From positions 1 to 64,000 of IMG/VR virus record IMGVR_UViG_3300020462_000003: a stretch of DNA of 64,000 nucleotides; one strand, given 5' to 3'. The position numbers were made by a program, and so were the translations under genes. The notes beneath the pieces were generated by a model. It saw nothing but the letters and a program-made list of their open reading frames with translations. It was not told the origin of the DNA and did no database searches. Below, one piece after another: positions 1-35,374 of the stretch (within the stretch, counting starts at the first letter, position 1; every line of letters starts with the position of its first letter). This DNA is from a virus.

Positions 1-39
1 CGGAACCCCCCCCCCCCCTCATCCTGAAAGGAGACCTAG

Positions 40-369
40 ATGAGCGAACAACCGTTACCCCTTTACCTGGTCAACGACCTATTCCGTAACACCTTCCTAC
101 CGATTTTCGGGCGGGTAATGCTCACGCCAGGGGCTGCAGCACATCCTATGCGTGAAGCAGCTATCTCAGCTGTGCGTGTGTTCGATCAGTTCACCGAGGA
201 CAACGACCCGTATGGGGAGCACGACTTCGGTTCGTTCGAGATCGATCACCAACGGTTCTACTGGAAGATCGACTACTACGACCAGCACTACCGCAACGGA
301 TCGGAAGATCCAACCAACCCCCTTATCACCAGACGGCTGCTGACCATCATGCTGGCCGAGGAATACTGA
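40..369 (+). CDS. DUF3768-family protein
   Basis: LVNDLFR...F..DNDPYGEHDFG...WKIDYYD...RLLTIMLAEEY signature; GGAG RBS upstream. Confidence 0.8.
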   Translation: MSEQPLPLYLVNDLFRNTFLPIFGRVMLTPGAAAHPMREAAISAVRVFDQFTEDNDPYGEHDFGSFEIDHQRFYWKIDYYDQHYRNGSEDPTNPLITRRLLTIMLAEEY

Positions 370-2263: not shown

Positions 2264-2614
2264 ATGTCCGTAGAAAAGCAGATCAAGGAACTACCAGAAT
2301 GGTATCCCGACAAGGTAACCGAGCAGCAGATGGCTGACATTCTGGGCACCACCAACCGCTCCCTGGAAGCCAGAAGAGCAAGGAATCAGATCCCTGAAGG
2401 GGTTTGGAACCGCATGAATGGCCGCATTTACTACAGCCGATCGAGGTTTGAATCATGGCAAGAAAGCCAATGGCACTGCCCACAGGAGTTGAACTCCACT
2501 ACGGTGCGCTCCGTATCCGATTCAGTTGGAATGGAAAACGCTGCTCCGAAACACTCGACTACCCCACGACGCAAGCGGGGATCACAGCTGCATCCCGTCT
2601 ACGCGATAAAGTAG
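2264..2614 (+). CDS. xis: Excisionase / recombination directionality factor
   Basis: Small wHTH-like N-terminus (EQQMADILGTT..SLE.RR.R...PEGVW...GRIYY) overlapping the integrase start. Confidence 0.7.
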   Translation: MSVEKQIKELPEWYPDKVTEQQMADILGTTNRSLEARRARNQIPEGVWNRMNGRIYYSRSRFESWQESQWHCPQELNSTTVRSVSDSVGMENAAPKHSTTPRRKRGSQLHPVYAIK

Positions 2615-3642
2615 TCCAGATGGCCAAGCACGGCACCCTCACCCCTGAGGCCTATGCCGAGCTGTTTCCCAACTCCACCAATGCCATGGCCGCTGTCAGC
2701 TACACCTTTGGCCAGTATGCCCAGGTCTGGCTCGACAGCCGTAACCTGGCTGCTGGCACACGGGTCAACTACCGGTCAGTGCTCAACCACTGGTGGATGA
2801 AGTACCTGGCCACAACACCCCTGCACGCTATGACCACGGCATTCATGCGTGAACTGGTGGTTCGTGTTCCCTGGACCACCGATGGCGTCAAAGCCAATGC
2901 GATGAACAAGCTGAGCACCATCCTGGAGTCAGCGGTGAGTGACAAACTGATCACTGAGAACCCTCTGGTGGATCTGGACATTCCTAGACCCAAGGAGAAG
3001 ACCATTGATCCCTTCACTCAGGTGGAGGCTGAGCTGATCATCGACAAGCTGTACGCCACTGAGCATTGGCCCAGCGAGATCTATGCAGCCTTCTTTGAGT
3101 TCACCTTCTTCACCGGTATGCGTCTAGGTGAAGTGGCTGCACTCAAGTGGGATTCAGTTGAGCTGGATAAGCGTCGTGTGCTGGTTCGCCGTACGGTTGC
3201 CCAGAAAGAAGTGGAAGACCGAACCAAGACCAAGAAGGATCGGTATGTGTTGCTCAATGACCGGGCCATTCATGCACTGGAGTTCGCCAAGGCTTATGCC
3301 GAACGGCGACTGAAAGGGACGGGCAAGCTCACCGAGTTTCCGTACTGCTTCCCACCCAGCAAGAAGTCCCAGTACATCCAACAGACCAGTGACCTGCACC
3401 ATCAGTGGCGACCTACCCTGAAGGCACTGGGTATTCGATACCGTCCTCCGTACAATGCGCGCCACACGTACGCAACCATGTGTTTGATGGCCGGGATGAC
3501 CCCTGCCTTCATCGCCAAACAGCTTGGCCACTCGTTACAAATTCTCCTCTCTCGATACGCTCGTTGGATCGAAGGGGAAGGTGATTGGAACGAAATGGGA
3601 AAATTGAAAATTGCCCCGAAATTGGCCCGAAGCGAAACCTAA
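2455..3642 (+). CDS. int: Tyrosine integrase with N-terminal arm-binding domain
   Basis: TGMRLGE (R), TKT (K), YNARHTYA (YxxR variant of HxxR), QLGHS (H), RYARW (Y); 395 aa, intact. Confidence 0.95.
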   Translation: MARKPMALPTGVELHYGALRIRFSWNGKRCSETLDYPTTQAGITAASRLRDKVVQMAKHGTLTPEAYAELFPNSTNAMAAVSYTFGQYAQVWLDSRNLAAGTRVNYRSVLNHWWMKYLATTPLHAMTTAFMRELVVRVPWTTDGVKANAMNKLSTILESAVSDKLITENPLVDLDIPRPKEKTIDPFTQVEAELIIDKLYATEHWPSEIYAAFFEFTFFTGMRLGEVAALKWDSVELDKRRVLVRRTVAQKEVEDRTKTKKDRYVLLNDRAIHALEFAKAYAERRLKGTGKLTEFPYCFPPSKKSQYIQQTSDLHHQWRPTLKALGIRYRPPYNARHTYATMCLMAGMTPAFIAKQLGHSLQILLSRYARWIEGEGDWNEMGKLKIAPKLARSET

Positions 3643-3813
3643 CCCTCTGAAACCCGCGAGATAGAGCTTCTTGATTTCTACAGCTAACATCACCATGCAG
3701 TTCTAGGTGGGTTTTTTTGAGGTCTGTTGAACGTATTTACTGGGCTGCAGGCCCCTCAACAGCCCTCAAAAACACCCAATTGGCCCGAAAAGTGGCCCGA
3801 GATTTGGCCCGGA
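3611..3813. other. attP: arm-type repeats flanking a core that resembles the 5' end of an ABC-F gene
   Basis: TTG(G/C)CCCGAA-like repeats at 3611, 3622 and at 3780, 3792, 3804; mini-ORF TTG...TTC TAG at 3671-3706 encodes LISTANITMQF. Confidence 0.8.
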
Positions 3814-3820
3814 ATACACA

Positions 3821-3851
3821 AAGAAAAGCCCCGATATCCGGGGCTTTCTTC
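3821..3851. terminator. Bidirectional intrinsic terminator between int and the lysis genes
   Basis: AAAGCCCCG-ATATC-CGGGGCTTT with A- and T-rich flanks. Confidence 0.8.
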
Positions 3852-3883
3852 TGTCAGTTTTACTCACAGGTTCCGCTCCTTGG

Positions 3884-4306
3884 TTACGCCACTCCTTTAC
3901 GCTTCTCGAAGGTTCTGGCACCGGCATAACCCAGGTAGCCAGCTGAGAAGGTCCACCACAGTTCCTCTGGCAAGGCAGCGAATCCTTTACCTACATTGGC
4001 GAAGAACAGATCCATACCCAAAGGGTTGAATACACCGATCACCGGAGCCACAACCGTCAGGCTCAGGATCACGAAGTAGAACACGTAGAGGAAGGACGGA
4101 CGTGCCCGGCTGGTCCATGGGTCAACACTGCTGGCTTCAGCGACGATGGCCGACATGCGCGTCTCCAGTTCCTTCAGCTCACCATTCTGCTGAAGCGACA
4201 AGAGATCCAGTTGAGCCTTGGCTTTCGCCTGAGGATCTGGAATCAACTTGTCGATCAGCTTGCTGCCTACCTCAAGCAGCGAAGGCACCACGGTGAGCAG
4301 GCTCAT
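3884..4306 (-). CDS. Holin (3TM / GTA-holin type)
   Basis: KLIDKLIPDP..KAKAQL..., WTSRARPSFLYV, GYLGY..RTFEK; hydrophobic segments; next to the endolysin. Confidence 0.8.
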   Translation of the reverse strand: MSLLTVVPSLLEVGSKLIDKLIPDPQAKAKAQLDLLSLQQNGELKELETRMSAIVAEASSVDPWTSRARPSFLYVFYFVILSLTVVAPVIGVFNPLGMDLFFANVGKGFAALPEELWWTFSAGYLGYAGARTFEKRKGVA

Positions 4307-4644
4307 TTGCAGCCCTCGTGTTCCAGGCTGAAGTGATTTCCGTCTGCAGAACTAAAACGTCCACCCCAGCAGCCACCCAGTGACTCCCAGTACTCACCTA
4401 GCTGGGTGTAGTCCTCGGTGGCAGTCAGGTACTTGCCATCCTTGAACAGGTTGAAGTCCACAGCAAGACGCTGCTTGTGAACACTCCGAGCAGCCCCATA
4501 AGCCTTCTTCTCCCCATGCTGGCCATGCAGACGTGGGTCTCGGTAGGCATCGCCAAAGGTCAGTTCATACCCATTCTGGTAGGCATACTCGATGAGCAAG
4601 CCAATCAGGCGTGTGAAGTGTCGTTGTTTGTTTCCTAGTGTCAT
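4303..4644 (-). CDS. Endolysin, M15 (L-Ala-D-Glu-type) peptidase
   Basis: AYR...SVH..RLAVD...WGGRF..DGNHFS zinc-peptidase motifs. Confidence 0.9.
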   Translation of the reverse strand: MTLGNKQRHFTRLIGLLIEYAYQNGYELTFGDAYRDPRLHGQHGEKKAYGAARSVHKQRLAVDFNLFKDGKYLTATEDYTQLGEYWESLGGCWGGRFSSADGNHFSLEHEGCK

Positions 4645-24625: not shown

Positions 24626-27600
24626 TCACTTGATCAGTGAGCTGATCGCCTGGATAGGCAGGGTTTCATCCCACGCATCCAGCATCTTGAAGGCCCCTAT
24701 ATCCAGTGGGTTGCCAAACTGGTTGACTGCAGCCGAGTCAATCAGTGTCTGAGCACCGTCCAGGTAGCCATCAAAGGCCAGCAACATCAGTGCCCGAGCA
24801 GGGTTCTCTTTCATGAGATCCATGATCACATGCTGGATACGCAGGTAGTACTTGGTGAAGTACACCAGACCCATCCTGTTCGCATAGTCGAGCAGTTGGT
24901 GTGACGGCTTGTCGTAGTTCACGAATGCACGCGACACCTTCAACACTGCATCTTCGTGGCTCAGTGGATTCTTCTTCCGTGAAATCAGCTGCTGGTACAG
25001 GGTGTACCTCGCCACGAAGTCCGACACCTGAGTGCCCTGGCTCAATACGCGGTACAACGCTGTGTCATGCGTAACAAAGGCCACCTTCGCAACAGACTTG
25101 AGCGCATCCGGCACACGGTCGGCGTGTTGTTCCAAGCTCTTCACCCAACGTGACTTGTACGAGTAGTCAGAATCGGCAGTGTCCACGTCCTCAACAATGC
25201 TCGACAGCAGTCCTGCTTCGATCAGGGAACGTACCGGGCTTTTAGCCAGTGTGTTCTCCAGTCGAAGAATCTTCTGCTGCATCTCGCGCACATCCCCTAC
25301 GACAGCACCCGAAGCCAGTTGCGCCTGCAAGGCTGACAGTTCGCTCTCGTCCTTCCGATAGTCCAATACCCCCTGCAATGCCACCCAACTGTTCTTGGCA
25401 ATGTCCACAACAGGCACGCCACTGAGCCACAACTGCGTGTAGTTACTGACCACGTTCCATAGCAGCGTCATGCCCGTCTTGACCACCAGAATGTCCTTGA
25501 CCACCCGGATGACCTCCATCCAGCGATCTTCCCCCCGGCGAATCATCAGTGCTGCACGCTTGGCACGATCTTCCAGATCCACACCGGTATGCCCTTCACG
25601 CTTGAGCTGCCAGCGAACCATCAGGTCCGTCATCTTGAAGAACATGTCTTCAGAGAAGTTACGCTGAGCCTCGTCCAGCTCCATGATCTTCGACAGACTG
25701 TAGGCCGAGTAACCAAACGTCTGGTCGTAAATGTCGTTACGGACCATCAGGTTGTCCGACCCCCAAACATCTCTGAGTGCTTGCTTGGAAGCAGGGGGCA
25801 ATATCCGCCAGGTTTCACGGATCGATGCGTCCTTACTGTCAGGGCCAAAAGTGATATACGCATCCGGGTTTTTTGTGTACTCCTGATCGTACTGATCCTT
25901 CAAGGCTTCAAAGGCTTTGCGGTTCTGCTGAGTCACATTGCTCTTGTCGAAGATGTTCGACTCCAACGCACCTAACAGCAGATCAAAGCTGTTGTTGCGC
26001 TCCAGCAGTTGATCCTTCATCTGCTCGCTCATCAGGTAGCGATACCCTGCAGCCTCACCCACGGCATTGATCACCGGAGCCATGTAGACCTTGCTGTCCT
26101 TGCGTGGATCATAATTCGGGTCGATGGGCTGAGCCTGTACAGCACGGGTGATTGCCCGATTGATTCGCGCCGCATGCTTGTCAACGTACCCGTTACGCGA
26201 ATACAAAGGCGCATGCACTTCCGTGCCTTTGTGGTGCTGACCGGTATAGGTCACCACACCCGTCTGGCGATTAGGCAGTCCTCGATCAGTGAGGCGCAGC
26301 AGCACCAGATCCTTGAGTACAACGTCGGTATCGTCCTGTTCCAACGGACCTACCACCTCATACCCCTGAGCCACCATACGCGCTACTTCAGAAGCCGGAG
26401 CGGTGATAATCTCGGTGTGTGGGTTGTACACCTCCGGCAAATACCCTTTCATCATCAGCAACTCACTGTCTTTGAACAGCTTCTCTGCCGATTCCTTTTG
26501 CATGTGACGGTGCAGTTTGAGAATGACCTCGATACCGTTGCCCTTGTCATCCCGTTCAAGCTCTTTACGCATCACCTGGGCGGCCTGCATACGTTGGTTG
26601 GCATCGGTGTATTCAAGCGCGTAGAGCGAAACCAGTGGATCGAGCACCTTGGCAATCTCACGGCCTTCTTCCAGGGAGACCTTGGTGCTGTCCGGCGTAT
26701 TCAGCCGCAAGGCGATACCCAACGCATTCTGCTGAGTGTTGTAGCCCTTGACCTTTACCGCCATCCGGTAGGCCAGTTGCTTGACGCCCTGGATATATGC
26801 GTCCTTGAACGGGCCACTGAGTTGAGCTTCGTACTGAGCTATAGCCTTGTCACGCGCTGCCTTGTCAGTCATCAGATCCAGCAGACCGGCACTGTCAAAG
26901 GGACCTAGCAGCGATTGCATGTCGGTACGCAAAGCCACCTTGGTGACGGCATCCTTCATTCTCTGAGTGAGGTATTCACCGTTCTCGGCAAAGCTGTCCA
27001 GACTCATTTTGGCGAAGTCGGTCTTGATCTTCATCCGCACCGTTTCCAGGAACTTGGTGCTGAGCAGTAACAGATCCGCCACCTTGTTGCCTTCACGCAT
27101 CTCGTTGATCACACCGGCCATAAGACCCAGCTTGCCCTGGTACAGACGATCCCGCAGCACTTTGCCTGCATCTACCAGCTGCCCTACCTGATCATCGACC
27201 GAGGCGGCAGCTATGCTGCTGGCAGCACGCACAAAAGCATTCTTGTGCTGATCCAGCATAGGCGACTCCAGTACCCTGAGTACCTGTTGCTTGGCCTTGG
27301 TACTCACACCGTCCAGGGCGTCTTCCAGTTGCTCACGGGCCGCACCCACAGGACCTGTACGACGGTTCTGTTTGCGGTACTCCAGGTCCACCAAACGTCG
27401 AGCCAGGACACTCAACTTCTCATCGGCCTGTTGACCGCTGTAGACCTTGAACAGGCGATGCTGCAGTGCATCCAGCAGTTGTTCCCACAGCCACTGGATG
27501 CGTTCCCCCAGCTTCATCTGCGACACCTTGCGTGTGTCTTTATCGGTCTCAAAACTCATCTGGTCATGCAACGGCTCCCAGACCATAGCCAGTGCAGCGA

Positions 27601-30600
27601 ACCGAGCCAGGTACTCAGAACCCTGCCCCTTCGAATTAAAGACGTGATCCCACTGCTGGGTATTCAGGGCAGTACGGATGTTCGGGTTACGACGAGCCTC
27701 CTCGTACAGGCGAACCAGCTGCTTGCGTGTGCCTTGAGCTTCGGCACTGTCCAGCGTCTCCTGGAAGGTCAACTGAGCCAGCTCCAAGGCAAAGGTCTCT
27801 TGCTCATTCAGGCCAATGCCTGCTGTAGCGGTATCAGCAGAGAATGGCAGGATGCCGAGCACCTTGGCTTGCATGATCTGCGCGATTGGGTCAGTGGCCT
27901 GAGTGCTTTGCATCTGCGCCTTCAGCACGCCAAAAGGACCCTGCAACCGTGACATGACCCCACTCACCAGGGCTTGCAGACGTGCAGTCTGATCCTGGCT
28001 CATCGGCTTGTTGGCCTGAGCCAATGAATCGAACACCTGCAAGGTATCCATCGCAGCCTGCGACGTGGCTCGTTGACGCAGGGTCAGTCCTGCCTGCTGG
28101 TTGCGGGTCACCCCGGCTTCGTAGAACAAACCAGAGGTATTGGTGATCAGTGCCGTCAGTGCCGAGGCTGCCTGTTCTTTCTCGGTCTTGCTCGATCCAT
28201 TGAAGAGAATGCCCACCACCGAATCGATGAACTTACGCATCGCCTTGATCAATCCGTTCGGGCCTTTACGCTGGCTCTCGAAGGTCATCTTGTTCAGCAC
28301 ATCACGCTGAAAGCCCTGGTTGGTCATGCCCCAGGAAATCAACTCATGGACGTTCTCGATGGCCGGTGCGTAGTTCTGCTGCAGCTGGGCATCCTTGGCA
28401 ATAAACGCTTCGGCCTGCACACGCAGCAGTTCCAGATCATCAATCAGATCCAGGGCTTCACTCTCATGCTCTGGATTGGCTGTGCGTGCAGCCAGTTCTG
28501 CTTCGATGGTCTGAGCCAAGGCACCGTGTACCAGCTCATGCAGCACCAGTTCAGGCGTCAGGTTGCCTACCTGAGAATCGGTGCTACGCAGGTAAATGGT
28601 CGGCGTGCCTCCCTCAGTGGTGAACCAGCCCAGCGAGTTGTCTACATCTTCGCCCTTCAGCTCACTCTTCGGCGTGTTCGGGGTGACGTAGCGGATCTCC
28701 AGTCCAGCATCAACCGTGTTGGCCAACATCTTCAACAGCTTGCGGTTGAGGTTCTGTACCCGTCCTGCAGGCGTGGCCAGCAGTGCCTGTTCAACCAGAC
28801 CAAAGACTTCCTTGGCTGGCATCACCGGCTTGGCTTTCAGGGCTGCTTCCAGGGGAGACAGCTCTTGTGTGTCGTCTTCTTCGACGACCTCTTCCTGAGC
28901 CTCTGCGGCCTTGCCGGGTTGCATCCCTTTCGCCTTTTCAGCCAGCAGCTCAGCAGCGGCCTGTACCTCGGCAGACAACACCGGCTGCAGGGTTTTGAGT
29001 TTGGCCTCGATGGCTTCACGATCCTTATCGGTTACCCGGTACACCCCTTTCTCCAGGGTGTACTGATCCAGGGTATCCACTTCCATCAACAGGTTGAGTT
29101 TGGCCTGGTCAGCGGCGTAGGCACCATACTTGGCTGCATCCAGTACATGCGGAATCAGCCTATCGAAAGGCACACCTTCCACATCCTTATCGAACGCCTT
29201 CTCTATCTGAACGTGGATCTGTCGCAACGCATCCATGTCGAAGGCATCACCTTCGGTCTCGATACGTTCAGCCAACGCCAGTACGGTACGTTCCAGAGCC
29301 TGGTAGGTCTGTTCGGGAATGGAGTAGTTCAGCAACGCCTCGAAGGTGTGTTTGTTCAGGCTGTTGGCACCCTTGACCATATCTTTGAGTGCCAGCCCCA
29401 GAGCGTCATGCACGTTCAAGGCTTCGACCTGTGCGTAGCTGCTCATGGCAATGAAGCTATCCGTACTCTGTACGCTTTTAGCCATACCACTGACGCCAGG
29501 GTCCTTCATCATTTCGGTCATGGCACGCACCTGCATGCGCGGACGACCATTGAAGGCAATCTGCGAGGAGTAGCGTGGATCACTGTTCAAGTGTCGCTCG
29601 GACTGGGTAGCGAAGACTGCGCCTTCTGTACTGCCTGTCTGAGAGCTGGCCGTATGCAGGCGAGGCTCGAAGGCTTTCACCCGCTCACGTAACACCTTGG
29701 TCTGCTCTGCCGTCAGGTCATGCAGCGGAACACGCACTTCATCCTTATTGCGCTTGAAGGCCATCAGCCCTGCATCCATCAGCTCCTCTTCGTAGCGGCC
29801 ACGTTCCAGTGCGTACATCTGGTCGTAGATGGCATACGCCGCCTGCAACGTGTTGTTGATCTGGGTACGTGCCGCCATGAAGTCGCCAAGGTTCTCTTGC
29901 AGAGATACACGGGTGGCCTTGCCCAGCGAAACCTGGAAAGCACCCTTGAACAGGCTGGCTTGCTTGTCGGAGAACTCCCACTCCATCCCCTGCTCCAGGG
30001 TCATGGTTTCAGGGAGCAGCTGTGATTCCAGGAAGTACTTCTGCTTGCTGCTCATCTTCTTGCCCTTGGACATGCCCAGGGTCAGCAGCGCATTGATATC
30101 CCGAACAATCTGCTCCATCGAGTCAGGGGTCTTGTTCTTCTTGGCAGCCAAGGACTCCATTCGCGCATAGACCCGATCCAGGGTCTCTTCCGCCATGGCA
30201 TCCAGTGCGGTGAACACCGATGAGCCGTACATCAGCCCCGTCAAAGGGGTCTTGACCAGGTTACGCGCATCCTTGCTCACCGAGCCGTCTTCTGCCCGCA
30301 GTACGCCAGTAAACCGGTACAGGGCATCGATACCCCCTAGGCCTATGCTGTAGTCGCGATCAGACCATTCTTTAGTGATCTCCTGCATGGAGAACGTCAT
30401 GTCACTGGCCAGAGTCTGGTACAGGTCAAGATTGCCCAAGGCCTTCCAGGCACCAAAGCCCTTCTCGTCCATCGACTTCAGCATGAAGCCCCCTTTGGGA
30501 GCCAGGTTCTGCGTCATGGCACCGAGCAACCACAGGCTCAGCATCGGGCCGTTGGTCTTGCCGTCCACCTCACCCATCATGTGGGAAGTGAATACCTGCT

Positions 30601-33600
30601 TACCGGACTCCTTGGCTTGCAGGTAATCGGCCAGACCCAGCAAGGCATCGAAGCTGTGCATCTTCTCCTTGCCCTTGAGTACACCTGCCAGGATGGCTTC
30701 CTGACTTTCAGGCGTTACCGTCTCATTCCAGATTAGGTCACGGATGGCCTGAGCAGCCGCCCGATAAGTAGGATCGTTCTCGATCGATTCCCACTTGGCC
30801 AGGGTGGCTTCGTCACTTTGCTCGTCGGACTTGATGCCCAGGCCTTCCATTACCCGCAGCTGGAAGTTGATCAGCGATGTGTCGCCTGCACCCTTGCCCA
30901 TGGATACGTTGGATACCCAACCACCCATGCGGGTGACGAAGCGATGCACCTTACTGGTCTGAGGGTTGATGCCGTTTTCCTTGAGCATCACACGCTGGTT
31001 ATTGGACGTGGTAGGCGTCAGATGAAACGGTACATCCAGGGACGCATCGAGCTTGGAGATCTGCTGGAAGAACTCCATCAGGTGAGCAATCTCACGACGC
31101 AGGCCATCGTTCTTCGCTTCCTGGCTCTTGCGGTGAGCCTTGTGAACCTTCGTCTCGTCTACCAACACCACACCTGCGACCTGCTCGAAGACCTCCGGAT
31201 TGAGTAGGGTCACCACCTGCATGGAATCCGCACGCAGGTAACTGGTTCGCTTGGCGACCTTTTTCAGGATCTTCCATTGCAGGTCAGGAGTTTTCTGCAG
31301 TCCTTTTACATGCGTCTCCGGACGCATCTTCGGTGCGGTGAGTGCGGGAAATTGCACAGCCGACTCCACCCCGAAGACCTTGTTGAAGGCGCCTTCTGTC
31401 TGACGGGCCGACTCAACAATCGACTGAGCTTGCTGGTTCAACTCACCATTTTTCGTAACCAGTCGAATGAAGACGTGGTTGCCTGCGTTGTACTCTCGCT
31501 TGTCACGGGAAGCATCAACGACAGCTTTATCGGAGACAGTGGATGCTTCAACAATACCCTGCTCTTCCAGCATGGCCAGCGTGTGAGCACCCAAGGCGAT
31601 GCGCAGCCGATCATGGCTGTCACTAGGCGCATCTTTCTTCAGACGCAGCCCAAGCGCCTGTATAGCCATGTCACCCAGTCGATTAACCACCAGGTTACGG
31701 GTGGTGCCTACATCCGAGAGCAGGCGCATCAATGCAGGTGGGACAGCCAGATCCTGTTTACGCCCGATCTTGGCATTGACGGCTTCTTCGTTATCCAGAC
31801 GGGGCTTGCCGGAGGCTTCCAGAATCCAGCCATAGGCCGATACCGACAGGGCCGTGGCAATGTTCTCTTCCAGGTTCAGGTCATCGTCGTGCAGGAACTG
31901 CATGAAGTCGTAGGCGAAGGATTCGGTAAGGATCTTTCCTTCCTTGTTCTTCATGCGCTTGAGCTGGCCCTGAAGAGTGTCCTGCCAGGCTTCGGCTGCA
32001 ACCACGAAGCGGTTCAGCAAACCATGCTGCTCATCGGTCAGGTCACTGTCGATGAACGACTGGAACTTCGCCTTCCCAGACTTGATCTTGCTCATGAAGT
32101 CGGTGACCGAAGTCAGTGGCTTCTTGGCATGACGCACCTGCTCGAAGTCTTCGGCAACACGGTTCTGTGTGAGGTAGTTGGCTGCTTCAAAGGGTTTGCC
32201 CGAGGCTTCGGCAAACAGCTTCAGACGCCCATCCACCACCGCCTCTTCAAATAGATCCGGCTGAACATCGTCCTGCTTGTCTGCCAACCCTTCCATCCAC
32301 TGCAGGATGCCTGCTGCTTCTTCAGCAGCCAGATCCTGATCGGCGGCCAGCTCATCGATCTTGGCGTCCATGCGTTGCACGAACTCAGGGGAAGCCAGTC
32401 GAGCAATACGCGCACGCACAGGGGCAAAGGCTTCACGGATACTGTTCTCGTTGAACATGTCCGTGTAGAGGTTTTCAGCCGCAGTCTCGCCGTCGTCATC
32501 CAGCTCCTGCGGATTGGCATCCAGTAGCTTCTGGCCTTCAAGCAGACGCTCACGCGCATCCAAGTCGCTGACACGAGCAGCCTGCTCTACGAAATTGGCA
32601 GGCACATTTGCTTCAACTTCCTCGGCTACAGATGCAGGGTCCTGAACAGGTTCACTGGTTGGTTGGGGAATCTCTTGAGGGGCTTCCGCCACCGTAGCTT
32701 GAGCAGGTTCGGCAACCGGCTTGGCGATCTCCTGCCGGGGAGTTTCTGCCACAGTTACAGGCTCAGTCGGTGCAACAACAGCGGGAGCCTGCTTTACTGA
32801 CGAGGTACGCAGCTTGTACAGCGACTTCATCTCATTCAGCAGCGACTTCAGTGCAGCCGCTTCCTTACGGACTTCGTTGATACGGCCTGCCGATGCACGG
32901 GTGACTGTGAATCCACCGGCCTCTTTCATAGCCTTCATGCTCAAGGGTTGCGTGACGGGTCCCCAGTTACCTTCGGCATCCGGCACCACCTGCACACTGC
33001 CACCCTTCTTCTGGATGGCATCCAAGGCACTCTTCAGTGCGGTCACCTTCTTGATGTGACTCGCCGCAAAGTTCTGCAGATCCTTGATCTCTCGACGGGC
33101 CGTCACTTCATCCGGTGTAGTGGCGTTCAGGGCAGAAGTGATCCAGGAACGGTACTGCTTCATTCCCTTGTTCTTGTCCGAACCCAGACGGATCTCGTCG
33201 CTCACGGCACCGAAGTCCTTGAGCTGGTTTTCCGCTACACGACTGGCTGACAGGAATCGCAGATGCTTACGCTGTGCGTCATCCAGTTTGATGGACGGCG
33301 AATTAATCAGGTAATCCAGGGTGCTATCGGTCAGCGCCTCAGGGTTACGCATGGACAAGGTGAACGACTCGGCAACCGCTTTCTCCAGCACAGTCGGTTC
33401 AACAGTATCGGGTGTTTCGATGGCTTGTTTGATAGTGGCCTGAGCGGTCTCAGCTACCTTGCCGGTTACACGCTGCTCGAACTTACGGGCCGTCTCCAAC
33501 TGGGTTTCCAGCGTCTCGACCGCAGTCTTGGCACGCTTACGAGAATCTGCATCCGAACGCACGGCAACACGCTTCTCCAGAGCGGTGATGTACTGGGTGT

Positions 33601-35374
33601 ACTCAGCCACCGTTTCCGTGTCAGCAGGGTCTACGGCCGCCAGTTCGGTCTTGCGCTGATCCAGCTCTGCCTGCATCTCCTGCACCCGTTCAGGGGCGTA
33701 CTCAGCCAGCGTCGCCTTCTTCTTGTCCAGGGATGCCTGCATATCCCCGACCAGGGATACCAGTTCCTGACTCTTGGCTTCCTTTTGTTCTGGAGCCAGA
33801 TCAGCCTTCTCGATGTGACGCATCAGTGCCCGAGCACCCAGCACGGGGTTGTAGGTAGCCGACTCAGGGTTGACCAGCGCCTCTACGTCACCTGTTTCAG
33901 CCGCCTTGTCTGCTGCTTTCTGGGCGTCGTCGTAGCGGGCCAAGGCTTCTTTCTGCTCACGGCTGGCACCGCCCATGACCGAACCCATGGCAGTACCGGT
34001 GACCAGACCCATGGCAGCCGCATTACCTACACCTTCATCGTAGGGACGGTCCAACGCCAGGTTCTGCAGCACCTGCTCGCCTGAGGATTGGACAGCTTCC
34101 TCACCCCCCTCCAGACCTGCAGCGCCTACTGTGCGGGGCACTACCGGTTTGGTGGATGTGCCCAGTGCGCCTTTAACCAGAGCTTCATCCACGTCACCCA
34201 AGCCTGCCTTGTTGGCCAGGCCACCACTGAGACGATTGACCAGCGAACCCATGACGCCTGTACCACCGGCAGCAGCAGTCTGCTTGAGTGACAGCAAGCC
34301 ATCAGCGGTCTGCTGACGGATACCCTCAGCTGCACTGCCTGCCATGACCAGGCCTTCGCCTGCTGCAGCTGCTACCTTGCTGCCTGCACCTAAGGCCTGC
34401 AAACCACGGCCAAACAAACCACCTGCCAGCATGGAGGGGATGGATTCACCCACAGCATGAGGAACAACACTGGGGTTGGCTGCGATCTCTTCCATCGTGT
34501 CCCAGAAGCCTTCGGCCTGACCGACGTTTTCGTCGGCATACCGCTGTTCCCAAGTCTTCAGGGTGTCGAGGAATTCACGAGCCTCCTCAGGACGGAAACC
34601 GGCTTCTTCGAGCGTCTTGCCTGCATGGCCACCCGACACAATGTCAGCCAGACCCACGGCCATCTCGGGAACGCTCACAGCACCCTTGACCGCAGTGACA
34701 GTACCGTCCTGCGTGGCACGGCGCATCAGACTATTGGTTCGCTCTTCCGTCTCCCCCATACCGGCCAGCGAATCCCAGTTGGATAGCTGATCGATCTTCT
34801 CGGAGAAGCCCCGAGCCTTCAGGGCACGTTCCAGTCGATCCAGGTTAGCGGCACCTTCCCTCGCTGGCATCTGGGCAGACCCGAACGTCATCTCACGCTG
34901 GGACAGCAGATCCATATCGGCATCGGTAGCCTGGTTGGTGCGGTAACGGCCATAGGCTTCTTTGGCAGCAGCATCCACCGAGGCTTCCTCGGCAAAGGCG
35001 TACGCATCCAACGGAGCCTGCAGGACATTACCCCCCAGAGCAGCGGCATCCTTGGCGAAGGACGCCAACTGGTTGATCACCATGCCTGGATATCCCTCAT
35101 GATCCAGACCCAACTTACTCACAACACTGTTGGCGTTGGCTTCATCAATGCGACCTTGCCGTTCACGAAACCGACGATTACCGTCGATGATCGATGCCGT
35201 ACGGGTAGCCTCACGCGCTGCCAATGAATTAGGTATCGGCTCCTGGTCCTTCAGCGCACCCAGTACTTGACGCTTTAATTCAGTTGCTTGCGCCAGCTTT
35301 TCCTTTTTAAGTTCGGTCAAGGAGATAGAGCGTAGTTCTTCTGGGAGTTCTGGAAGTTCTGGGAGCTGAGCCAT
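24626..35374 (-). CDS. Virion-encapsidated RNA polymerase (N4 gp50-like)
   Basis: 3582 aa; motifs EVDGKTNGP (A), RNLVKTPLTGLMYGS (B), VHDA (C); no Cys seen on reading. Confidence 0.95.
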   Translation of the reverse strand: MAQLPELPELPEELRSISLTELKKEKLAQATELKRQVLGALKDQEPIPNSLAAREATRTASIIDGNRRFRERQGRIDEANANSVVSKLGLDHEGYPGMVINQLASFAKDAAALGGNVLQAPLDAYAFAEEASVDAAAKEAYGRYRTNQATDADMDLLSQREMTFGSAQMPAREGAANLDRLERALKARGFSEKIDQLSNWDSLAGMGETEERTNSLMRRATQDGTVTAVKGAVSVPEMAVGLADIVSGGHAGKTLEEAGFRPEEAREFLDTLKTWEQRYADENVGQAEGFWDTMEEIAANPSVVPHAVGESIPSMLAGGLFGRGLQALGAGSKVAAAAGEGLVMAGSAAEGIRQQTADGLLSLKQTAAAGGTGVMGSLVNRLSGGLANKAGLGDVDEALVKGALGTSTKPVVPRTVGAAGLEGGEEAVQSSGEQVLQNLALDRPYDEGVGNAAAMGLVTGTAMGSVMGGASREQKEALARYDDAQKAADKAAETGDVEALVNPESATYNPVLGARALMRHIEKADLAPEQKEAKSQELVSLVGDMQASLDKKKATLAEYAPERVQEMQAELDQRKTELAAVDPADTETVAEYTQYITALEKRVAVRSDADSRKRAKTAVETLETQLETARKFEQRVTGKVAETAQATIKQAIETPDTVEPTVLEKAVAESFTLSMRNPEALTDSTLDYLINSPSIKLDDAQRKHLRFLSASRVAENQLKDFGAVSDEIRLGSDKNKGMKQYRSWITSALNATTPDEVTARREIKDLQNFAASHIKKVTALKSALDAIQKKGGSVQVVPDAEGNWGPVTQPLSMKAMKEAGGFTVTRASAGRINEVRKEAAALKSLLNEMKSLYKLRTSSVKQAPAVVAPTEPVTVAETPRQEIAKPVAEPAQATVAEAPQEIPQPTSEPVQDPASVAEEVEANVPANFVEQAARVSDLDARERLLEGQKLLDANPQELDDDGETAAENLYTDMFNENSIREAFAPVRARIARLASPEFVQRMDAKIDELAADQDLAAEEAAGILQWMEGLADKQDDVQPDLFEEAVVDGRLKLFAEASGKPFEAANYLTQNRVAEDFEQVRHAKKPLTSVTDFMSKIKSGKAKFQSFIDSDLTDEQHGLLNRFVVAAEAWQDTLQGQLKRMKNKEGKILTESFAYDFMQFLHDDDLNLEENIATALSVSAYGWILEASGKPRLDNEEAVNAKIGRKQDLAVPPALMRLLSDVGTTRNLVVNRLGDMAIQALGLRLKKDAPSDSHDRLRIALGAHTLAMLEEQGIVEASTVSDKAVVDASRDKREYNAGNHVFIRLVTKNGELNQQAQSIVESARQTEGAFNKVFGVESAVQFPALTAPKMRPETHVKGLQKTPDLQWKILKKVAKRTSYLRADSMQVVTLLNPEVFEQVAGVVLVDETKVHKAHRKSQEAKNDGLRREIAHLMEFFQQISKLDASLDVPFHLTPTTSNNQRVMLKENGINPQTSKVHRFVTRMGGWVSNVSMGKGAGDTSLINFQLRVMEGLGIKSDEQSDEATLAKWESIENDPTYRAAAQAIRDLIWNETVTPESQEAILAGVLKGKEKMHSFDALLGLADYLQAKESGKQVFTSHMMGEVDGKTNGPMLSLWLLGAMTQNLAPKGGFMLKSMDEKGFGAWKALGNLDLYQTLASDMTFSMQEITKEWSDRDYSIGLGGIDALYRFTGVLRAEDGSVSKDARNLVKTPLTGLMYGSSVFTALDAMAEETLDRVYARMESLAAKKNKTPDSMEQIVRDINALLTLGMSKGKKMSSKQKYFLESQLLPETMTLEQGMEWEFSDKQASLFKGAFQVSLGKATRVSLQENLGDFMAARTQINNTLQAAYAIYDQMYALERGRYEEELMDAGLMAFKRNKDEVRVPLHDLTAEQTKVLRERVKAFEPRLHTASSQTGSTEGAVFATQSERHLNSDPRYSSQIAFNGRPRMQVRAMTEMMKDPGVSGMAKSVQSTDSFIAMSSYAQVEALNVHDALGLALKDMVKGANSLNKHTFEALLNYSIPEQTYQALERTVLALAERIETEGDAFDMDALRQIHVQIEKAFDKDVEGVPFDRLIPHVLDAAKYGAYAADQAKLNLLMEVDTLDQYTLEKGVYRVTDKDREAIEAKLKTLQPVLSAEVQAAAELLAEKAKGMQPGKAAEAQEEVVEEDDTQELSPLEAALKAKPVMPAKEVFGLVEQALLATPAGRVQNLNRKLLKMLANTVDAGLEIRYVTPNTPKSELKGEDVDNSLGWFTTEGGTPTIYLRSTDSQVGNLTPELVLHELVHGALAQTIEAELAARTANPEHESEALDLIDDLELLRVQAEAFIAKDAQLQQNYAPAIENVHELISWGMTNQGFQRDVLNKMTFESQRKGPNGLIKAMRKFIDSVVGILFNGSSKTEKEQAASALTALITNTSGLFYEAGVTRNQQAGLTLRQRATSQAAMDTLQVFDSLAQANKPMSQDQTARLQALVSGVMSRLQGPFGVLKAQMQSTQATDPIAQIMQAKVLGILPFSADTATAGIGLNEQETFALELAQLTFQETLDSAEAQGTRKQLVRLYEEARRNPNIRTALNTQQWDHVFNSKGQGSEYLARFAALAMVWEPLHDQMSFETDKDTRKVSQMKLGERIQWLWEQLLDALQHRLFKVYSGQQADEKLSVLARRLVDLEYRKQNRRTGPVGAAREQLEDALDGVSTKAKQQVLRVLESPMLDQHKNAFVRAASSIAAASVDDQVGQLVDAGKVLRDRLYQGKLGLMAGVINEMREGNKVADLLLLSTKFLETVRMKIKTDFAKMSLDSFAENGEYLTQRMKDAVTKVALRTDMQSLLGPFDSAGLLDLMTDKAARDKAIAQYEAQLSGPFKDAYIQGVKQLAYRMAVKVKGYNTQQNALGIALRLNTPDSTKVSLEEGREIAKVLDPLVSLYALEYTDANQRMQAAQVMRKELERDDKGNGIEVILKLHRHMQKESAEKLFKDSELLMMKGYLPEVYNPHTEIITAPASEVARMVAQGYEVVGPLEQDDTDVVLKDLVLLRLTDRGLPNRQTGVVTYTGQHHKGTEVHAPLYSRNGYVDKHAARINRAITRAVQAQPIDPNYDPRKDSKVYMAPVINAVGEAAGYRYLMSEQMKDQLLERNNSFDLLLGALESNIFDKSNVTQQNRKAFEALKDQYDQEYTKNPDAYITFGPDSKDASIRETWRILPPASKQALRDVWGSDNLMVRNDIYDQTFGYSAYSLSKIMELDEAQRNFSEDMFFKMTDLMVRWQLKREGHTGVDLEDRAKRAALMIRRGEDRWMEVIRVVKDILVVKTGMTLLWNVVSNYTQLWLSGVPVVDIAKNSWVALQGVLDYRKDESELSALQAQLASGAVVGDVREMQQKILRLENTLAKSPVRSLIEAGLLSSIVEDVDTADSDYSYKSRWVKSLEQHADRVPDALKSVAKVAFVTHDTALYRVLSQGTQVSDFVARYTLYQQLISRKKNPLSHEDAVLKVSRAFVNYDKPSHQLLDYANRMGLVYFTKYYLRIQHVIMDLMKENPARALMLLAFDGYLDGAQTLIDSAAVNQFGNPLDIGAFKMLDAWDETLPIQAISSLIK

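Follow-up and report, generated by a model that had tools for sequence, protein, structure and literature searches.

Directly behind its integrase gene, a marine virus genome carries a reading frame of 11 codons, and the question raised by this locus is why that frame spells the first residues of a bacterial protein. The genome is a 74,266-bp IMG/VR virus record (CheckV rating, 100% complete), of which bases 1 to 64000, the whole stretch of DNA hereinafter called the window, were analyzed. Positions 3671 to 3706 read TTG ATT TCT ACA GCT AAC ATC ACC ATG CAG TTC TAG (TTG-ISTANITMQF-stop) and begin 28 nt past the stop codon of the integrase gene int (2455 to 3642). A sequence-only reading of this DNA had reported such a frame, flanked by arm-repeat clusters and preceded by the purine-rich tract GAGATAGAG, and the sequence bears this out at 3671 to 3706; the start that it gave, 3660, takes in the purine-rich tract before the mini-ORF. 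It had further proposed that the codons replace the 5′ end of a host gene for a YbiT-type ABC-F ATPase upon integration. At roughly 90% probability, we read positions 3608 to 3815 as the attP of a temperate, N4-like Pseudomonas phage that rebuilds the 5′ end of a YbiT-type ABC-F gene.

The phage attachment region and the start of the host ABC-F gene

The features of the locus are listed below.

2264 to 2614, + strand: excisionase (recombination directionality factor) gene (phrog_9668, E 1e-35), whose 3′ end overlaps the annotated int start
2455 to 3642, + strand: heterobivalent tyrosine integrase, 395 aa (Pfam Arm-DNA-bind_2 and Phage_integrase; phrog_1, E 5e-54)
3428 to 3456, + strand: promoter-like TGGGTA-N17-TACAAT in the integrase box II codons (..PYNARHT..), hypothetical and of low confidence
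3608 to 3641, + strand: P arm, two arm-type Int repeats (ATTGCCCCGA and ATTGGCCCGA) within the final int codons, predicted binding sites
3643 to 3670, + strand: putative phage version of the leader and ribosome-binding region of ABC-F (CTCTGAAACCCGCGAGATAGAGC), with 96% conservation in 10 integrase fossils
3671 to 3703, + strand: attP identity block, TTG plus codons 2 to 11 (ISTANITMQF) of the host gene for the YbiT-type ABC-F protein, matched exactly by 30 species genomes
3703 to 3783, no strand assigned: long hairpin where the P′ arm begins (+ strand, -36.1 kcal/mol and z -3.6; - strand, similar)
3704 to 3706, + strand: TAG stop of the 11-codon mini-ORF in attP, and in attL once integrated
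3778 to 3815, + strand: P′ arm, three arm-type repeats (ATTGGCCCGA, AGTGGCCCGA, and TTTGGCCCGG), predicted Int sites
3824 to 3848, - strand: intrinsic terminator that ends the converging lysis operon, right edge of the att region
3884 to 4306 (holin) and 4303 to 4644 (M15 peptidase), opposite strand to int: lysis operon, downstream of att

The window phage is an uncultured marine N4-like phage, temperate and represented by a free phage genome. A 3582-aa ORF (24626 to 35374) matches the N4-type virion RNA polymerase (phrog_2206, E 9e-174), and phage genes flank positions 3671 to 3706 on either side, which identifies the site as the attP region of a free phage rather than a prophage end. Megablast of window positions 2400 to 4400 against 50,697 phage records, a set in which those close to the window may be lacking, returned zero matches. 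The integrase combines an arm-binding domain (PF12167 Arm-DNA-bind_2, residues 9 to 74, E 7e-12) with a catalytic domain (PF00589 Phage_integrase, residues 209 to 369, E 2e-18), and the product of the adjacent excisionase gene has a weak Pfam HTH_17 match, under the cut-off. Two copies of the arm-type repeat consensus ATTGGCCCGA lie at 3610 to 3630 and three at 3779 to 3812, every copy on the + strand. Over the 64-kb window, this motif is not enriched (61 matches versus 54 expected), so that the signal is the cluster of five within about 200 nt. The relatives G004/L011 have an arm-repeat type of their own, TGCCCCAA, present on both arms. Of the elements of a lambda-type attP, the window holds an integrase with arm-binding and catalytic domains, arm repeats on two sides, a core identical to attB, and an adjacent excisionase gene.

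The 33-mer at 3671 to 3703 occurs exactly in 30 species genomes, from Pseudomonas, Methylobacter, other Methylococcales, and one Marinobacter, against about 1e-8 matches expected by chance in 596 Gb according to our own estimate; the match to ABC-F is thus not a chance one. In all genomes with the exact 33-mer, the next bases encode G-A-K-P-L-F-E-N. In Pseudomonas putida PSE9 (locus L054), the 33-mer forms the beginning of a TTG-initiated ORF of 528 aa, which scores 1015.8 bits (cut-off, 762) against the NCBIfam profile NF011646/PRK15064, "ABC-F family ATPase," a family that we take to be that of E. coli YbiT. Residues 1 to 526 of this ORF align to profile positions 1 to 529, residue 1 falling on position 1, so that the peptide is the N terminus of a YbiT-type ABC-F protein, as had been claimed from the letters alone. 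The phage itself carries the 11 codons only, not an ABC-F gene. The YbiT-like ABC-F protein of P. aeruginosa PAO1 is PA1964 (2026 review, PMC13159725).

Across the genus of P. putida PSE9, the degenerate pattern (start)-ISTANITMQFG was found in 293 of 301 genomes (291 of 299 without the unpublished genomes G172 and G223), and the reversed control gave 0. The start codon of the ABC-F gene is mostly TTG in this genus, and wobble variation is ordinary. The latter speaks against an ultraconservation at the nucleotide level, which we had considered on account of the same 33-mer in Methylobacter and Marinobacter. At loci L042 to L071, the gene has a TTG start and A/T-ending codons (ATT TCT ACA GCT), even in high-GC Pseudomonas. 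Conservation of its 5′ end may be the reason why it makes a good attB. By hand count, codon 8 is ACG instead of ACC (ATCACGATGCAG) in about one-third of 150 listed species of the PSE9 genus; this change alters the core ATCACCATGC of JBD44-type phages (see below) and may limit the species open to lysogeny at the site. In P. putida PSE9 and P. uvaldensis the site is empty; the upstream neighbor is a divergent Asp/Arg-hydroxylase gene, and there is no integrase.

Junctions in integrated relatives and the integrase family at the site

Integrated relatives of the phage bound the exchange. G001, a 16.8-kb metagenome contig found via locus L005, carries 67 nt of host ABC-F DNA, to which its host part is limited, then the core, and beyond it runs back through int (integrase 99% identical to that of the window) and the left-hand genes at 86 to 98% identity to the window. 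It then passes from window position 369 to 74252 of the record, which it follows as far as 60893 at 92 to 95%. Because G001 spans the joined record ends, the prophage is circularly permuted relative to the virion record, with its opening at the proposed core. At this joint, window positions 1 to 368 (DUF3768 gene, 40 to 369) are absent, and 18 nt (G001 positions 3603 to 3620) stand in their place; the record ends (window 1 to 368 and record 74253 to 74266) may be true virion termini, or the DUF3768 gene may be an indel. The host flank of G001 is that of Pseudomonas sp. NPDC047963, identical over the 50 nt compared, in agreement with the host genus predicted earlier (Pseudomonas in NCBI naming).

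Both junctions were recovered from a freshwater DNA run (X6). One contig holds positions 2414 to 3703 followed by host GGCGCCAAGCCGCT (attR), and the other has a foreign flank up to 3670, followed by 3671 to 4398 (attL). In G001 and X6, attR consists of int, the 33-mer, and then GGC GCC AAG..., with which the ABC-F gene continues. The junctions therefore lie at 3670/3671 in attL and at 3703/3704 in attR; the duplicated segment is the 33 bases 3671 to 3703, which places strand exchange within ABC-F codons. Two further predictions of the sequence-only reading thereby hold, namely, that crossover occurs within the codons of the mini-ORF, now bounded by the junctions, and that host identity ends at CAGTTC, as phage sequence reaches 3703 in G001 and in the X6 contig and gives way to GGCGCCAAGCCGCT. 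Neither a lysogen of this very phage nor, among isolates, any lysogen of the N4-like phage was found; its integrated relatives come from metagenomes, are about 92 to 98% identical to it, and show that the N4-like lineage truly lysogenizes. The virion RNA polymerase was not found in G029, G040, G061, G051, and G055, species genomes with window-like integrase ends at the site. Two marine RNA libraries (X2 and X3) contain the phage at 100% identity in Logan contigs (k=31) that break at 3673 to 3702, along with short contigs of host ABC-F continuations of the G013 and G044 type; this fits phage and host in one sample and has no bearing on transcription, integration, or the attP junction.

The same target is used by a wider integrase family. 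The 21-mer GCTAACATCACCATGCAGTTC occurs in 40 IMG/VR contigs, and the ABC-F gene continues in 37 of them, every one with an integrase homologue (50 to 99% identity to that of the window) that ends 47 to 103 nt upstream of the core. Among the other three, L013 and L041 are attL ends with a window-like P′ arm, and the third is the partner end of a provirus. Read from the phage-borne TTG, the rebuilt ABC-F ORF is intact (528 to 529 aa) in 31 of 31 complete cases and open in seven cases that run off the record. The proposal that integration rebuilds the gene directly downstream of int thus proved correct in this set. The integrases of G002, G003, and G004 (L011, L013, L041, L083, and L084) are about 70% identical to that of the window, have the same target, and come with their own arm-repeat type (TGCCCCAA); in G004, a provirus complete at 54 kb, attL lies at about 2.1 kb and attR at about 52.7 kb. 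An N4-type virion RNA polymerase was looked for and not found in G002 to G004 (proviruses of 54 to 60 kb). Since class-A int-attP units reside in proviruses without this polymerase, they represent a mobile module common to unrelated phage types, and the xis-int-attP module appears to move between them.

Proviruses of the JBD44 group in P. aeruginosa account for 33 of the contigs and are 94 to 98% identical to JBD44, DO4, JBD88b, PSA04, and YMC/01/01/P52. In the JBD44 genome, the int stop is followed by a 36-nt spacer, TTG ATA TCT ACA GCT AAC ATC ACC ATG C, and then unrelated sequence. Three proviruses of this type with both ends read TTG ATC TCC ACC GCG AAT ATC ACC ATG C|P′ arm at attL and TTG ATA TCT ACA GCT AAC ATC ACC ATG C|AG TTC GGC at attR. 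In this class, whose integrase is 52% identical to that of the window, host codons are replaced by synonymous phage codons, and exact identity between attL and attR is limited to ATCACCATGC, the upper bound on the exchange region. Phage and host differ at five positions in codons 2 to 6, all synonymous, which indicates that in lysogens the gene opens with phage DNA, from the start codon through codon six, selected for the same peptide. The attP of the window phage and the attB of its likeliest hosts agree fully over 60 to 70 nt, so that the crossover point is not readable from their sequences and is taken from the JBD44 class; by analogy with these 52% identical integrases, crossover probably occurs at ATCACCATGC, positions 3689 to 3698.

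In the mechanism that we propose around the observed att anatomy, attB identity, junctions in an integrated relative, and intact rebuilt ORF, the lambda-type Int would bridge the 2+3 arm repeats and the core, and strand exchange would take place between 3671 to 3703 and the start of the host gene. Positions 3643 to 3670 would be a copy of the host ABC-F leader, and 3671 to 3703 a copy of the start codon and codons 2 to 11 (PA1964 in PAO1). The predicted integrated order runs, on the left, host promoter, 11-codon stub, TAG, P′ arm, and a prophage of about 74 kb and, on the right, xis, int, and the phage leader with TTG and first codons, followed by the rest of the host gene. The ABC-F gene thus remains unbroken, with first codons, ribosome-binding region, and all upstream sequence made of phage DNA, and the native promoter at attL can drive nothing but the 11-codon stub closed by the TAG at 3704 to 3706. 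The attL of L013 has the same TAG, and the stop comes four or five codons further on in the G004 attL and JBD44 attP.

Two other origins of the attP segment were weighed. As the record is metagenomic and Logan k=31 contigs break at the 33-nt repeat, an assembler might have fused attL and attR through this repeat, in which case the record would be a prophage and its attP a chimera. The record ends, however, fall within a stretch of phage DNA uninterrupted in G001, the site is surrounded by phage genes, the whole fits a virion genome with fixed ends, and the record of an isolated phage, JBD44, shows the same arrangement of int followed by mini-ORF; we regard a chimera as extremely improbable. 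The ABC-F fragment might also be an accidental scar from imprecise excision, a passive piece of DNA that provides homology for recombination and nothing else. Aberrant excision can yield extended att homology, and the similarity between phage spacer and host leader decays with distance from the TTG, as a scar would have it. Yet the TTG, the frame, and the same six residues are common to three integrase classes that are only 50 to 58% identical and differ in the wobble bases, and all 31 of 31 lysogens have an unbroken frame, whereas a passive scar would gather nonsynonymous and frameshift changes. A scar is accordingly very unlikely, and the account of attP as a functional replacement of the gene start is retained below.

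Expression of the rebuilt gene and integrase fossils upstream of it

Since the rebuilt end is the 5′ one, the phage must also bring the translation start and transcription signals. The 28-nt spacer at 3643 to 3670 (CTCTGAAACCCGCGAGATAGAGCTTC) resembles the empty-site leader CTCTGAATGCTTCGCAGGAAAAACCT at the same distance from the TTG, and the leader-like motif CTCTGAATGCTTCGCAGGAAAAACC stands at equal distance from the TTG in empty Pseudomonas sites. The element TGGGTA-N17-TACAAT (TACAAT at 3451 to 3456) obtained the top score in our own weight-matrix scan and recurs in seven class-A integrases and fossils, 234 to 243 nt ahead of the TTG, as well as in L108 at -237 in variant form (as TAGGGA) and in L100 at -180. 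A stricter scan of 3200 to 3950 passed zero sigma-70 promoters. In living integrases, synonymous change in 3415 to 3474 amounts to 4/20 versus about 45% gene-wide, a modest deficit (p roughly 0.02 before correction for 20 bins) and weak evidence for the promoter. A sigma-E/AlgU-like reading of the leader TCTGA was discarded, as no fitting -35 element was recognized by eye. With the native promoter left at attL, it is plausible that ABC-F comes under phage transcription, and the rebuilt gene would be transcribed from the phage side, with either int read-through or the TACAAT element as the source.

The P′ arm hairpin begins at the TAG of the mini-ORF. A similar structure of different sequence occurs in the P′ arms of L013 and G004, where 6 of 24 pairs are changed on both sides. 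It is not called a terminator because no T-run follows it on either strand; it could insulate the prophage from host read-through or serve a sib-like control of int.

The region upstream of ABC-F has a history of its own. In the genus of Pseudomonas sp. NPDC047963, which comprises 67 species, 60 genomes show at least a partial match to window positions 3580 to 3703, and 11 species match 3633 to 3703 at 91 to 99%. A full JBD44-type integrase is present at one of the 28 best loci and a 250-aa fragment at another; 19 have C-terminal fragments only (18 to 129 aa, ending 30 to 173 nt before the TTG), and at seven no integrase similarity is detectable. Decayed integrase 3′ ends, from box II to the stop, stand directly before ABC-F in 20 of these 28 loci (L086 and L092 to L119). 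Integrase similarity was also looked for upstream of the empty sites of P. putida and P. uvaldensis, and none was detected. The host-side attL flanks in G004, L013, and L083 are integrase fossils too, which means that the site has been used repeatedly and that decay leaves the int 3′ end before an intact gene. This suggests serial integrations, with remnants left in front of the ABC-F gene.

When 10 fossils were compared with the window, identity peaked at 3420 to 3479 (0.70 to 0.88) and 3648 to 3659 (0.96), with 0.44 to 0.67 in between, and in the lineage of L100, L101, and L104 the middle is deleted and both conserved blocks are retained. This two-block conservation fits a promoter plus a leader, but box II, which is also conserved best in living integrases, is a confounder. 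It is possible, though tentative, that the int 3′ end combines box II, arm sites, a promoter (3428 to 3456), and a leader (3646 to 3660) that drive the rebuilt ABC-F gene. If so, about 250 nt of the int 3′ end would be kept after prophage decay as a permanent regulatory region of a core translation factor. The "native" ABC-F upstream region of the 67-species Pseudomonas-like genus would then be a stack of integrase fossils from serial integrations, possibly in P. aeruginosa too.

Lysogeny might instead act as a regulatory switch, in which ABC-F is silenced or controlled by the phage, translation-rescue capacity is altered, and the replacement 5′ end serves the interest of the phage beyond simple restoration. 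The native upstream region indeed remains at attL, about 74 kb off, a consensus promoter between int and ABC-F was not found, and in 3200 to 3950 the + strand has no terminator-like site, so that int transcripts would enter the gene. Purifying selection on the phage codons, with synonymous changes only, and the leader motif fit, however, a gene that must stay expressed, and in many species a short fossil precedes an intact gene, from which it follows that expression from fossil DNA suffices in the long term. On balance, a switch seems rather unlikely.

Several candidates for host sequence at the site turned out otherwise. TTGATAGGTAA (L003, L016, L024, and L026) was rejected as a native host leader, a full integrase lying directly upstream in four of four cases; it is the P arm of another phage class and recurs as an attL flank, where it is probably a fossil. 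The matches of 63 to 70 nt in 11 species were likewise given up as native attB, since alignment and tblastn revealed decayed integrase 3′ ends upstream in six of them (L086, L093 to L096, and L099), and the leader-core segment of 63 to 70 nt may itself be phage derived. A common left edge of the fossils near window position 3420 did not hold, as several extend further upstream with fading similarity. L118 and X6 record 10 show another leader class, ..CGTCATACAGCACGCAGGACAGACC before the TTG, with no integrase similarity upstream; it resembles the JBD44-type spacer CCGCAGGACAATGCC and could be a host leader copied by JBD44-type phages.

Relation to known systems and occurrence of the phage

JBD44 and its relatives (DO4, JBD88b, YMC/01/01/P52, PSA04, and phi1) resemble the window phage in integration: the integrase is 52% identical, the target gene is the same, the order is int, a spacer of about 36 nt, and TTG plus 8 codons, and in the lysogen int stands directly before ABC-F. 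They differ from the window phage in size (about 49 kb) and build, being annotated as Caudoviricetes only, in arm repeats of the TGGTAC type, and in host identity that ends after ATGC instead of CAGTTC. The JBD44 mini-ORF lacks annotation in NC_030929, and we found no description of the JBD44 att site in the literature.

In lambda-type attP and in phages that regenerate a tRNA gene or icd at its 3′ end, the identity block runs from the crossover to the gene end. The window phage shares with these systems the heterobivalent Int, two-sided arm sites, an adjacent Xis, and regeneration of the target gene. It differs in that the 5′ end is regenerated; 3′-end systems need no start or transcription signals.

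The closest precedent for a replaced 5′ end is that of dusA-associated integrases; their prophages and islands enter dusA at its 5′ end, for which element sequence is characteristically substituted (Farrugia et al. 2015, PMC4482086). Putative promoters were described before and after insertion of these elements (PMC4482086). Both systems involve a tyrosine integrase, the 5′ end of a conserved protein-coding gene, an element-supplied replacement, and an int gene adjacent to and co-oriented with the target at an insertion in the first codons (37 of 37 contigs here); the likeness concerns insertion behavior and makes no claim to membership in the DAI clade. In contrast to dusA, a tRNA-modification gene that receives a structurally suitable substitute, the target here encodes an ABC-F translation factor, and the replaced peptide is identical to that of the host. 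New is thus the target gene, with defined attP, attB, attL, and attR; 5′-end replacement itself is known from dusA. In the literature outside subscription journals, we found no description of ABC-F/ybiT 5′-end replacement by prophage integration. A 58.4-kb prophage between PA1965 and PA1964 of P. aeruginosa JNQH-PA57 was described as intergenic, without a mechanism (PMC8088628). Integrase-bearing N4-like genomes (14 marine) and proviruses are among those mined from IMG/VR by Zheng et al. (2023, PMC10654107); in the parts of that paper available to us, lysogeny is inferred from marker genes and proviral regions, and neither an att site nor a target gene is named.

The locus gives an uncultured marine N4-like phage an exact attB and an NCBI-named Pseudomonas host clade, and it defines an integrase family, inclusive of the well-used JBD44, that targets the first codons of PA1964-type ABC-F genes. 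This family is useful when prophage borders are annotated and when integration vectors are to have a target that is conserved. As the phage must supply the expression signals, lysogeny could change the regulation of a ribosome-associated ATPase, and the fossils suggest that phage DNA has been recruited as the ABC-F regulatory region in many species. The att region was also found at 100% identity in marine libraries X2 to X5 (2019), from a study separate from that of X1 (2014), the likely source sample, collected five years before; in X2 and X3 it lies on contigs of 18 kb and 47 kb. From X1 to X5, the phage lineage is either persistent or widespread in the marine habitat.
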